A stretch of 64,000 nt of DNA from assembly GCA_044892525.1 (NCBI GenBank), contig CM097885.1, forward strand, positions 8,248,001 to 8,312,000, read 5' to 3'. A model generated the notes under the pieces. The model did not search any database. It saw nothing but the letters and a program-made list of their open reading frames with translations, and was not told where the DNA came from. Positions within the stretch are counted from its first letter, which is position 1; every line of letters starts with the position of its first letter. This document shows, piece after piece, positions 11,703 to 21,276 of the stretch. A program made the translations under genes and the position numbers. The stretch is from Schmidtea polychroa. Lineage: Eukaryota.

Positions 11703-11859
11703 CTATGAAAATATTTTTATCATAAAATGTTTAAAAAATATTAAGATAATAATCATTTTTAAAGTTTAAGATATTTGTCGTAAGATATTATTCAAAATTA
11801 TCTTTTAAATAGTATCTTATAAAAAATATTATAAAATATATATAATTTAATTCGTTTTC

Positions 11860-12452
11860 ATAAATAATTTAATTCATTTTCATAAATAAATAAATAAGTA
11901 AATCTTCTTTTCATGAATAAATCTTCTTTTCAAAATCATCATAAATAAATAAATAAGTAAATCTTCTTTTCATAAATCATCATAAATAAATAAATAAATA
12001 ATTCTTTTTCTAAAATAGTTTTTATTTTCATAAATAATATATAAAAGTTATTAATTATAATGTTCAAAATCATCATAAATAAATAGGTAAATCTTCTTTT
12101 CATGAATAAATCTTCTTTTCAAAATCATCATAAATAAATAAATAAGTAAATCTTCTTTTCATAAATCATCATAAATAAATAAATAAATAATTCTTTTTCT
12201 AAAATAGTTTTTATTTTCATAAATAATATATAAAAGTTATTTATTATAATGTTCAAAATCATCATAAATAAATAAATAAGTAAATCTTCTTTTCATAAAT
12301 CATCATAAATAAATAAATAAGTAAATCTTCTTTTCATGAATAAATCTTCTTTTCATAAATCTTCCTTTCAAAATCATCATAAATAAATCTTCTTTTAAAA
12401 TATCTTCTTTTCATGAAAAAAAAAATCTTCTTTTCATAAGTTTCTTCTTTTA

Positions 12453-12515
<63 letters not shown>

Positions 12516-12520
12516 ATTGT
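11860..12520. repeat. Complex AT-rich tandem repeats inside the putative polB intron
   Basis: Reiterated AAATCTTCTTTTCAT and CATCATAAATAAAT units, one ~180-bp duplication, then (ATT)n. Confidence 0.8.
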
Positions 12521-12560
12521 TTAAAAACTTAAAAACTTATAACAATAAATAAATACTTAC

Positions 12561-12850
12561 ATTTTCGTCCTTTCGAAAGAAATTTTCCAGCATCAGCACC
12601 AGCAGAAGTATTTATTACATTTCCATCTAAAAGCATAATAAAAATAATAATGATAATAAGAGTAAACTATTAACATTTATTCTATTCGTGTCTACAGCTT
12701 GTCCGTCGATATTCATTTTAATTTGTTGATTAGTACCTAATAATCATATTAAAAATAATAAAATAATAAATTTACCATTAATTCCTCCAACGATCTTTCC
12801 GTCAACTCTTTGAATATTGTTGTTGTTGTTCTTGTTGTTAATAGATTTTT
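12561..12850 (-). CDS. Putative short 5' exons of Mav1 polB
   Basis: Donor AAAT|GTAAGT at 12560 joins acceptor CATAG|GT at 11703 in frame (..AGADAGKFLSKGRK-C-LKYQNF). Two further ~40-nt GT-AG introns upstream keep the frame open. No clean ATG was found. Confidence 0.55.
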
Positions 12851-13184
12851 AAAAGTGATGAAAAAATGAAAGTGTAGACTATATAAGAGAGATATTACAG
12901 GTTTTATTAACCGACCAATGAAAATAGAGATAGGATAGGAAAAGACACTACATGTTTGTTTATACAAACCATGACGAAATAATGACCTTTACATGTCTTT
13001 ATTACTCAGTGCTTTGTTACTTTGCACTGTGCATGCACTGAACATGTAATAGTATTACATAATATTTTTAAACATAAAATTTTAAACATAAAATAATAAT
13101 ATTTAACAAATAATAATATTTAACAAATAATAATAATATTTAACAAATAATTAAAATAGTCAACAAATAAAAATCATACATTTA

Positions 13185-13569
13185 TTAACCATCAAATTTT
13201 TTATACAACAACCATGCCAAACAGTGTTGACCACATGTTTGAGTCAATGGATTTTGAAACATAGTTTTATTATATACAATAGGTTTCCCAATTGTTTGAA
13301 GTTTTGATATCAACAAAGCAGGATAATAGAAACCCATAGGATCGAATACGAATATATTACTAGGTTTCACATATATAGCTATCCAATGTTCTCCACCAAG
13401 ATGAGACGAATGAGTATTGATGATTATGGCTTGATTATTGCTCAAATAAGGAATTTTATCAAGAGGAAAAACTCCTACAAATTCATTTCCTAATATTTGT
13501 TTTCCAATTCGATTAACCTGAACAGAACTACTTTAATAAAATTAAACAGTATCAAAAAACTTACTCCAT
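13185..13569 (-). CDS. Mav1 adenain-like cysteine protease, spliced: join(13565-13569,13185-13527), ~115 aa
   Basis: ATGGA|GTAAGT...TAG|TTCT gives MDSVQVNRIG..FVGVFPLD. Catalytic motifs GEHW, FDPMG and Q...TCGQHC. Confidence 0.9.
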
Positions 13570-13596
13570 GACAACTTTTTGTGTTTCTGTATACAT

Positions 13597-18582: not shown

Positions 18583-19047
18583 ATGCTTTCAAATATAAAT
18601 TACAGGGCAAAAGCTGATGTATCAAAAATGGTATTTCCAATGGGGAAACCACAACAACTTATCAATAGAAGTGAAAAATATCCAATAATATATTTCAAAA
18701 CTGGTAAATGTAAAATTATGGGGTGTAAGGAAATAATCAAAGCTAGTGAATATAATGTTTATGATTTAGAAATACAATCGATAACCGTAACTTCCGATAT
18801 AGGTTTTTCTTGTAATTTAAATAATTTGGCTAAATTAATACCATGCTTTTACGAACCAGAATTATTTCCAGCTTTGAGATATATAAAATATAACCCTATG
18901 TGTGTAAATATATTCGCTAGCGGTAAGATAGTAATTCTTGGAATAAAAAATATTGATTACAAATGTATAGTTGATAATATCATATCTGAAATTAAATCAA
19001 TAATTGAAGGAAAAGAATTTTTAGATTTTTTATTATCACCTAATTAA
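18583..19047 (+). CDS. Mav1 TATA-binding-protein-like protein (154 aa)
   Basis: Second TBP repeat is clear: EIQSIT...DIGF..NL..LA...YEPELFPAL...VNIFASGKIVILG. First repeat is shortened: LSNIN...IIYFKTGKCKIMG. Confidence 0.88.
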   Translation: MLSNINYRAKADVSKMVFPMGKPQQLINRSEKYPIIYFKTGKCKIMGCKEIIKASEYNVYDLEIQSITVTSDIGFSCNLNNLAKLIPCFYEPELFPALRYIKYNPMCVNIFASGKIVILGIKNIDYKCIVDNIISEIKSIIEGKEFLDFLLSPN

Positions 19048-19157
19048 TTATTTATCATTGCAATTAAAATGCATGATTCTGATTGGTCAAAATCTTATTG
19101 GCTGATGATTATTTATAACAAAATGTTTTCGGTTTAGTTGTCATTTATTCAACAAAA

Positions 19158-19567
19158 ATGTACAACATACAAAGTTCCGCAATCACCTCAATGAAAGAGC
19201 ATGCAAATTATGGTAATTTCAAATTTTTATTATTACATTAATATATATATTTTTTACAGATGAATATCAATCAGTTATCCTGCAAAGATTATGCTTCTAT
19301 TATCCAGAATTAAATGAAATTCTACAAGATAGAGATCCAGCTATCATTCCGGATTTGGTATACAACCAAACTCGAATCTGGATATTCGATATAATAAACA
19401 CCTTTCTATGGGATATCAAGATAGGAAGGGGGATGAAAGAAATGAAAGCAGAGGCTCCTTGCATTTTCGGATGTAGCTGTTTCAATTTCCGTTATCAACA
19501 ATATGTTGAATGGTGTTTGGTGAAGACTCTGAGAAATCATCACTCGAGTCAGATTGTATCAAAATAA
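19158..19567 (+). CDS. Mav1 Cys-motif accessory protein, spliced: join(19158-19212,19260-19567), ~120 aa
   Basis: A 47-nt GT-AG intron restores the frame. The product aligns by eye with Mav3 45270-45617 (YP/FP, TxIxIxDxI, PCxFxCxC, LR....QI). Confidence 0.7.
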
Positions 19568-19822
19568 ATTTTTTTTTTTTTATGTTGAATTGTTTTTGTT
19601 TTTGTAAATCGAAATAATAGAAATAGAAATAATAATAATAATAGTAATAGTAATATTAGAAATAATAATAATAAAAAACAATATTTATAATAAAAACATT
19701 AATGCAACATTAATGCAAATGACATGCAATTTAAACAAAGACATACAGCAATCTGATTGGTTGATAAACAATAGTCATAGGTATAAAAACCCTGTACCAT
19801 TTCATTTTAATCATTATTTACG

Positions 19823-20235
19823 ATGACAAAGAAAATTTCAAGCACTGAAAAGCCAAAAGTTGTTCCAGAACTTGTACAACCTGTTCAAATGTTCCACAAC
19901 TATAAAATGTATTTTTTAAAAGAAGAAATCAATATAAAATTGGTGTCACCGATCAAGCTAATTCCAACTAAATTTCAATTCTTATCCGGCACGCTTTCAA
20001 TGTTAGATGTTAAATCTATTGATGAAGTTTTCAAACGGTTGAATACGAATCTATCTTGTAATCTGGTTCAACAACAGATATGCAAGATTTTATGATTCAT
20101 TTGATGAAATCGGTTTCAAAGAAAACGAAAATTGGTATATAACAATTGCAATCCAAGGATATAAAGTTGATAATAAATGATGTGTATTCTCCAATTTGGA
20201 AAATTATGTCTGCTAGACTTTCACAACTATTTTAA
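19823..20235 (+). pseudogene. Mav1 accessory gene (possible OB-fold protein), frameshifted
   Basis: Near-identical to the intact Mav2 ORF 37721-38140 but with indels near 20062 and 20175. Confidence 0.75.
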
Positions 20236-20368
20236 TGTTATATTTAATAAATGTATTAGTCATATTTGCTTTTTCTCTTTATTAATTGCAACATTAATGC
20301 AAATGACATGCAAATTTAACAAAGAAAATCTATAAACAAACTTATAATATAGTTTTAAAGTGTTATTA

Positions 20369-20703
20369 ATGACTACAGAAAAAGGTTAACATGATTAATT
20401 AAATACTGAATTATTTATTATTTAGAATTATTAATCAAATTTTTGTTGGAAAAATTAGCAGAAATAGCTGGTGTAAAAATTGAGGATATATTATCTATTA
20501 CAAATGCCTTAAATATCGGCTGGGTAGCTGAGAGTCAAGATTCAGGATTTGACAATCATGAAGAAACTCAAGAAATTGATGACGAAATCTATGAACCTAT
20601 AGAGGAACCTAAAGATAATATTACGAATGATTGTATTAATCATGTCGTTGAAAATATAATGAAATGTGGAGATGACGATTGCGAATGTGTTAATAAATTT
20701 TAA
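20369..20703 (+). CDS. Mav1 small acidic protein, spliced: join(20369-20384,20426-20703)
   Basis: ATGACTACAGAAAAAG|GT..41 nt..AG| gives MTTEKELLIKFLLEKL...DSGF...IYEPI...CGDDDCEC. The same intron is present in Mav2. Confidence 0.75.
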
Positions 20704-20747
20704 AATTGAATTATTTTCATTTAAATATACTATTAAAAACAATAACA

Positions 20748-21276
20748 TTAATTTTTATTCATATATCTACAGAAAATATACATTATAACAACTCCAGTTG
20801 TAAGTTTTATATAGTTTTTCATTTTTCTTTTGATTTCATCAGTTTCTTTAAAATTGCAGGCCAGTTTATTTAATACACCCCATCCGCCATTGGCTTCTAT
20901 CCATGGGGTAAACTTGGACTTGATTATCTAGAAATGAATATTATTAAAATATAGATTATAAAAGAAATCTTACTTCTAAAGACCAATGATAATAATGTTC
21001 TGAATCATGTTGACCTTTTGCAATGATTATCTTCATGTAGGTGAATCCTACAATTATCCTTGTCCATTTCATGTCTTCATCGAAAAGACACTGAAATATT
21101 CTATTGAAGTAATACTTCTTGGTTTCCAGGGATTCCATCTCCATCATCTGCTGATAATCGATATGTTCACCTTCAATGATTTGTTCGGTTCGATTGATCA
21201 CGAAATTGAGGCTGTCGACTATATTCGCGGTGACAATTCCGTTTAGAACATTTTCCATAAAATTTGGTTGCGACAT
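20748..21276 (-). CDS. Mav1 Bcl-2 family protein, spliced: join(20974-21276,20748-20927), 160 aa
   Basis: BH1-like LFDEDMKWTRIIVGFTY in exon 1. After a 46-nt GTAAGA..CTAG intron come BH2 PWIEANGGW and a hydrophobic tail LTTGVVIMYIFCRY. Confidence 0.88.

Follow-up and report, generated by a model that had tools for sequence, protein, structure and literature searches.

When the genes of a mobile DNA element are interrupted by short segments that begin with GT and end with AG, are these segments introns that the host removes or scars of decay? The question is raised by a 64,000-nucleotide stretch of Schmidtea polychroa DNA (assembly GCA_044892525.1, contig CM097885.1, positions 8,248,001 to 8,312,000 of the forward strand; hereafter the window, in which all positions below are counted), which contains Mav1, a Maverick/Polinton element of 15.4 kb (6696..22076). 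The results assembled here favor introns. With a probability of about 85%, the GT-AG segments in the protease, integrase, and polymerase genes and in three accessory genes of this high-copy element are likely ordinary spliceosomal introns, which the element lineage likely gained at different times and which are predicted to be removed by the nuclear spliceosome of the host.

The elements and their copies

Mav1 has terminal inverted repeats, 5'-AG ends, and a 6-bp target duplication, and these Maverick/Polinton end features were also found in Mav3 (43964..52115), a divergent Maverick with an internal deletion that lacks the polymerase gene (polB). Mav2, also in the window, is a partial relative. 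The proteins encoded by Mav1 include a protein-primed DNA polymerase B (pPolB), an adenovirus-type protease, an integrase, an A32-type ATPase, and TBP-like and Bcl-2-like proteins. The ATPase (PF04665) and the protease (PF00770) both score above the Pfam cut-offs, and the integrase domain (PF00665) reaches 32.2 bits in Mav1 (cut-off 32.6) and 35.8 bits in Mav3. Six of the 13 genes are split, namely those for the protease, the integrase, the polymerase, a Cys protein, an acidic protein, and the Bcl-2-like protein. Hundreds of near-identical copies of the Mav1-type element occur in the S. polychroa genome (assembly size 781 Mb), and the best 150 of 3675 protease candidates, which are those that were scored, are 97-100% identical to the protein of the window. 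The Mav1 and Mav3 copies in the window both carry damage unrelated to the introns.

Constant ends and free interiors

An earlier note on this DNA had listed seven GT-AG segments of 37-72 nt, five in Mav1 and two in Mav3, and all seven begin with GT and end with AG exactly where it had placed them, with an A+T content of 81-97%. Because the segments had been picked for their GT-AG ends, these ends alone are no test, even though a fixed pair of ends would match GT-AG by chance with a probability of about 0.002. More informative is the comparison of copies. The segments recovered in 20 fetched copies are always GT..AG, and across 22 copies the intron end positions show no substitution in 258 sites. 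In the same 22 copies, frameshifting indels affect 25 of 2,424 sites in the intron interiors versus 29 of 95,714 sites in the exons; the corresponding rates, 10.3 per kb within four segments and 0.3 per kb in exons, differ about 30-fold, a contrast inflated by the homopolymer-rich interiors. The ends are of the U2 type, with GT..AG and host-like donor and acceptor sequences. Constant ends, free interiors, and positions inherited across families thus bear out the view that the segments are not insertion damage. The five Mav1 introns are unlike one another by eye, and no genome-wide search for an introner family was made.

An old intron in the protease gene

The protease gene (minus strand) starts with a coding exon of 5 nt (13565..13569), which is the start codon plus 2 nt, followed by a phase 2 intron of 37 nt (13528..13564) and by exon 2 (13185..13527), which carries PF00770. 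In Mav3 the intron (50559..50598, plus strand, 40 nt) also follows a 5-nt coding exon and lies at the same codon in the same phase, so that the identity of position asserted previously was confirmed. The intron was found in 19 of the 20 fetched copies (36-40 nt), in 29 of a further set of 30 (29/29 GT..AG), and intact at 13 of 14 loci belonging to five further families with 59-96% protein identity, the 14th locus being decayed. All three metagenome contigs found via the capsid protein carry a 43-nt protease intron at 52% protease identity, two of them being identical in sequence at the intron. Among eight representatives the intron interiors are 53-89% alike, on an AT-rich background. That the protease intron is old and inherited is thus well supported by sequence comparison: the five further families sampled and the metagenome relatives all have it, as expected if it predates the split between Mav1 and Mav3.

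The known range of this intron is given by the three metagenome contigs and by 14 protein matches, of which five resemble ORF calls that read through an intron-like segment and three start directly and may correspond to intron-free genes or to transcripts. A genome pattern for an intron-free protease start in Mav1-like families gave a single match, which retains part of the intron, and scans of IMG/VR returned no element with this capsid or protease. Since the first Met of exon 2 is residue 64, downstream of His 47, unspliced protease RNA would yield no working enzyme.

A patchy intron in the integrase gene

The integrase gene (minus strand) consists of exon 1 (16883..17270), which carries PF00665, a phase 1 intron of 72 nt with a (TAT)n body (16811..16882), and exon 2 (16185..16810), which encodes the third catalytic residue and a chromodomain. 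The Mav3 intron (47919..47960, plus strand, 42 nt) contains an in-frame stop and occupies the Mav1 codon and phase; in both elements it is in phase 1, two codons past the second catalytic Asp, just as had been claimed. The reading as an intron would have suffered had orthologs kept the segment as coding sequence. For the integrase, all 120 listed homologues (of 1653) are uninterrupted at the motif, the insert forms a clean 24-column gap in an alignment of 32 homologues, and three distant IMG/VR elements, whose integrases are 33-36% identical, have no interruption at the site.

Within the genome, the intron is present in 17 of the 20 fetched copies and ranges from 39 to 321 nt. The longest example, at locus L046, has a non-repetitive insert between (TAT)n arms, with the intron ends intact. 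Genome patterns counted 702 integrase junctions with a short intron versus 110 without, the intron-bearing pattern missing longer introns. The intron occurs in the Mav1/B and Mav3 families and is absent from families C, D, and E, which do have the protease intron. A first, quick tree left out 15 of 68 genomic rows, each with more than four X; a careful integrase tree drew on a selection of 13 genomic rows, to which 13 outside proteins were added. In it the intron-free families D and E cluster with Mav3 (support 93/93), and intron presence needs two changes in all 200 bootstrap trees; a single clade of intron-bearing integrases is nevertheless compatible with the data (p-AU 0.11). Because there are intron-free families, two of which cluster with Mav3, the statement that the introns predate the split is unproven for the integrase. 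The pattern would be accounted for by a single gain followed by losses or by exchange of modules, or else by gain on two occasions at one AG/GT site.

The Mav1 segment is a (TAT)n repeat with a length divisible by three and no stop, so that the ORF 16185-17345 remains open. This bears on the prediction that ORF-based surveys would score such elements as broken: callers do misread the protease, whereas the Mav1 integrase would be reported as an open frame with a poly-Ile insert.

Predicted polymerase introns and probable module exchange

The main exon of polB (7563..11702, minus strand) encodes the protein-primed DNA polymerase B (PF03175, E 3e-08). It is preceded by a phase 1 intron of 858 nt (11703..12560, minus strand), whose splicing is predicted, and by small predicted leader exons (12561..12860, minus strand) separated by phase-1 micro-introns at about 12627-12673 and 12737-12775. 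In the window copy one leader donor looks degraded, and the 5' end is uncertain. The long intron measures 463-1364 nt in 12 other copies with constant ends, and the acceptor before the main exon lies at the same codon at seven of seven loci of divergent families, the joins being predicted only. Thus, of the putative polB introns proposed before, the two leader introns of 39-47 nt fit the description of micro-introns, and the main one does not. A break near 8620-8640 was also considered as an intron and rejected as frameshift damage of the window copy, since the frame is open at this point in 11 of 11 comparable copies. The long intron holds a 189-bp tandem duplication (11886-12263).

When intron positions are mapped across the Maverick families, as the earlier note had proposed, both the protease intron and the acceptor of polB turn out to be widely shared and the integrase intron patchy. 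An origin before the split of these lineages is well supported for the first two and not established for the integrase intron, which families C, D, and E lack.

In family B (L117, L118, L194), the capsid, ATPase, and protease are 95-99% identical to those of Mav1, and polB is just 53-63% identical and has a different leader; this combination of a near-identical block and a divergent polB likely reflects module exchange between families. At a family C locus (L101:1-9900), polB sequence flanks the integrase-capsid-protease block on both sides, the downstream one facing the protease.

Accessory genes

The Bcl-2-like gene (20748..21276, minus strand; PF00452, under the curated cut-off) has two exons separated by a phase 0 intron of 46 nt (20928..20973), 16 codons upstream of the GGW motif; the same intron is present in Mav2 (38862..38913, minus strand, 52 nt). 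It was recovered in 12 of the 20 fetched copies and in 14 of a further set of 30 (13 GT..AG), and paired genome patterns counted 86 copies with the intron and none without. Families at 65-74% identity keep it, and it is absent from the family-C Bcl-2. No insert was seen at this site among 15 host-like Bcl-2 loci inspected, several of which seem to break right past the GGW motif. Since neither the family-C nor the host-like genes have an insert at the site, the intron was likely gained inside the element, after capture of the gene. Seven near-identical host-like Bcl-2 genes form a cluster on C4 (89.9-90.8 Mb, L125-L131). In addition, about 60 matches (e.g., C1:6358467-6358736) show a weak Bcl-2-like domain (E ~9e-4) within frames of up to ~3,050 codons; these long frames occur in many near-identical copies and may encode the polyproteins of some large repetitive element.

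The other two split accessory genes lie on the plus strand, and neither the Cys nor the acidic protein matched a Pfam family. The Cys gene has a coding exon 1 of 22 nt (19191-19212) and a phase 1 intron of 47 nt (19213..19259), found in 13 of the 20 fetched copies (44-52 nt) and in all 30 copies of a further set (46-53 nt, 29 GT..AG). In the acidic gene, a coding exon 1 of 16 nt (20369-20384) is followed by a phase 1 intron of 41 nt (20385..20425), which was found in 8 of 20 fetched copies and in 28 of 30 in a further set (27 GT..AG), and also in family B and in Mav2 (38289..38329, plus strand, 41 nt).

Putative transcripts and host introns

The contigs compared here come from sequencing runs of which five are guessed to be RNA, none being so recorded, and they can show the presence of a junction, not its absence. 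At the Bcl-2 junction (20927-20974), contigs of X1 and X4 skip the 46 nt exactly, with correct ends; the shorter side of the overhang is 39 letters in X4, which has poly(A) tails, and 30 letters in X1. The two runs are two samples of one study. A spliced alignment of RNA had been suggested earlier; the contigs gave an exact joint for Bcl-2 and none at the protease, Cys, and acidic introns, the integrase site having been left out of both contig comparisons as a repeat. In a second contig comparison, none of the 15 joints listed (there are 342 more) falls at an intron site, and X6, a DNA-like run that dominates it, may hide others. Many contigs of X5, a run labelled with a second organism, fall on the ATPase-to-protease block (L117:1250-9500), which indicates that another species harbors a related family.

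Host introns provide a standard of size. In 11 compact stretches of myosin, a choice of loci that favors short introns, a spliced alignment called 145 introns; two references agree on 37 of these, and 32 of the 37 are 41-63 nt long, with a median of 52. Intron lengths reportedly peak at 45-85 bp in a planarian (PMC13594981) and at 37 and 90 bp in a fluke (PMC6530080). The short introns of the element fit the low end of the host class, which agrees with the expectation that they resemble host introns in length. The further idea of a virus adapted to a short-intron host is matched by the sizes, but adaptation itself is an extrapolation, as size speaks for use of the host spliceosome and not for selection.

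Genes without introns

The description of the genes as systematically split did not survive the comparison, because the major capsid, penton, ATPase, TBP, and pre-capsid genes are unsplit, and the main polB intron, at 463-1364 nt, is not short. Against family D, the major capsid, ATPase, penton-like, TBP, and small pre-capsid genes show gaps of at most 9 residues, and two more ORFs, partly compared, gave no sign of an intron. The major capsid gene (13597..14820, minus strand) likely encodes a double jelly-roll protein, with which its size, position, and conservation fit; its atlas feature score to DJR-like clusters is 0.98, with a recognition value below the threshold of the tool, and there was no real Pfam match and no PDB sequence match. 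The penton-like gene (15172..16254, minus strand), named from its position and with no Pfam hit, has no intron-sized gap. The A32-type packaging ATPase gene (17840..18478, minus strand) and the small TBP-like gene (18583..19047, plus strand; PF00352) have no intron. The TBP-like gene (18583-19047 and 45675-46157 in the window) is divergent from the ATPase gene and is found in Mav1, Mav3, and families B, D, and E.

Two further features lie outside the elements described above. A second pPolB gene (53648-58093), broken and about 31% identical to that of Mav1, has an N-terminal C2H2 zinc finger, and pieces of a Gypsy-like LTR retroelement (59203-63736) include a zinc knuckle, protease, reverse transcriptase, RNase H, and integrase.

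Weighing the explanations

Several observations weigh against reading the segments as introns throughout. A spliced junction is known for one gene of six, from one study and from runs of guessed RNA status; in X1, X2, and X3 there are contigs that extend into the protease intron, and in X1 some contigs retain that of Bcl-2; all these contigs may be DNA or unspliced RNA. At 36-40 nt, the protease intron is under the host minimum of 41 nt in the agreed set, which is a small and biased sample. As the Cys and acidic proteins belong to no known family, their exon 1 is defined by copy comparison alone. Furthermore, the Mav1-type integrase segment always has a length divisible by three and is open in 35 of 36 copies, so that it could be translated, and the tree (p-AU 0.11) does not settle the history of this intron.

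The integrase observations are the basis of one alternative, namely that the introns of the protease, Bcl-2, and polB are real but the Mav1 segment is spliced weakly, or often stays in the message and encodes a poly-Ile loop. The donor GTATTA, which is not the commonest one of the host, agrees with it, but a length divisible by three is expected because the repeat is a triplet; besides, a segment that spans 39-321 nt would adjoin the catalytic Asp, all 10 copies of the Mav3-type segment contain a stop in frame, and none of the 120 listed homologues has an insert at the site, all of which make retention improbable. Still less probable is that only the accessory-gene introns are real and came with captured host genes, as the intron-bearing cargo genes of nematode Mavericks would suggest (bioRxiv 10.1101/2022.07.12.499685, accessible part), since the core genes are split as well and the host-like Bcl-2 loci have no insert at the element's site. 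Damage, or microsatellite expansion in dead copies with GT-AG by chance, would account for the pure (TAT)n segment of very variable length and for the other lesions of Mav1 and Mav3; it is largely refuted by a codon and phase that stay the same, with differing interiors, across families whose identity falls to 52%, by the invariant end sites, by at least 150 protease copies at 97-100% protein identity, and by the exact Bcl-2 joint in contigs.

A different doubt concerns ancestry rather than splicing: the integrase intron may have been gained twice at the same AG/GT site, for example by local duplication, so that its shared position would not reflect inheritance. The two changes on the bootstrap trees and the grouping of D and E with Mav3 point this way, as do the flanking letters repeated at both intron ends and family E, in which the AG/GT site is present and the intron absent. 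Conversely, one intron clade is not rejected, a single gain with losses or module exchange (as seen for polB) fits the tree equally, and the match to a tandem duplication at the Mav3 intron does not reach significance, with 296 of 5000 shuffles doing as well; we consider two gains possible and the lesser bet. More ambitious, and rather doubtful, is the proposal that an ancient second-codon protease intron defines a whole clade of animal Mavericks, predates the families of this genome, and requires hosts that splice introns of 36-43 nt; lying at or below the host size limit and often retained, it would act as a gate that makes capsid maturation dependent on splicing while the capsid genes stay unsplit. 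Nothing in the results points to regulation of splicing.

Under the favored reading, that the segments are spliceosomal introns, the element would be transcribed in the host nucleus and would copy itself via DNA, so that introns would not be purged by an RNA step. New short introns at AG/GT-like sites or beside the start codon would be tolerated because the host splices introns of 40-60 nt routinely. The protease intron and the polB acceptor would be the oldest, the Bcl-2 intron would have followed gene capture, and the integrase intron would stem from a single gain with loss in sister families or from two gains at one site. Because unspliced RNA would encode a protease devoid of the first catalytic residue and, in the Mav3 type, a prematurely terminated integrase, splicing appears to be needed for function, and the element likely needs the splicing machinery of the host for its protease, integrase, and polymerase.

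Comparison with known systems and implications

In its inverted repeats, 6-bp target duplication, pPolB, integrase, A32-type ATPase, adenovirus-type protease, and capsid genes, Mav1 resembles the animal Mavericks/Polintons (PMC8097293; bioRxiv 10.1101/2022.07.12.499685; PMC8502044), and Bcl-2 and TBP-like accessory genes are mentioned for adintoviruses (PMC8502044). The accessible text on vertebrate Mavericks reports no introns in intact elements and takes "intronless ORFs" as a mark of intactness (PMC8097293), and that on nematode Mavericks calls the core genes intronless and places introns in cargo only (bioRxiv 10.1101/2022.07.12.499685). In contrast, three core genes are split here, and the trait of intron-free core ORFs, which is descriptive in PMC8097293 and lies outside the definition of Mavericks by gene content, does not hold. 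No report of inherited spliceosomal introns in animal Maverick core genes was found in the literature searched, which lay outside subscription journals and Repbase; none is given in the accessible parts of PMC8502044, PMC10748475, PMC12220804, PMC6431247, PMC8532177, PMC10175614, bioRxiv 10.64898/2025.12.11.693146, and 10.1101/2025.04.19.649669.

The surprise is lessened because such introns are known in other nuclear DNA viruses and in DNA transposons, although each case described in the accessible sources differs. Dinoflagellate Maverick-like elements likewise have spliceosomal-type introns inside proviruses, but these are transposon-made introners, acquired mostly after integration (PMC11957031), whereas the positions here are fixed and inherited across families. 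Mirusviruses also carry host-sized GT-AG introns in core genes, which were read as a sign of nuclear transcription; they belong to an unrelated phylum infecting protists, and their introns are enriched in virion genes, some with endonucleases (PMC12768974), unlike the unsplit capsid and ATPase genes of Mav1. The integrase-type genes of Ginger1 DNA elements have one to four conserved GT-AG introns, in small cut-and-paste elements that, unlike Mav1, lack polymerase, protease, and capsid (PMC2836005).

For the study of Mavericks, surveys that require intronless ORFs (PMC8097293) or ignore introns (bioRxiv 10.1101/2025.04.19.649669), as their accessible text describes them, would misannotate or undercount this lineage. 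The shared intron positions are characters for ordering Maverick families, and since hundreds of copies either have or lack one of the introns, gain and loss can be observed within a single genome. Finally, the dependence on splicing argues for nuclear transcription driven by the host.

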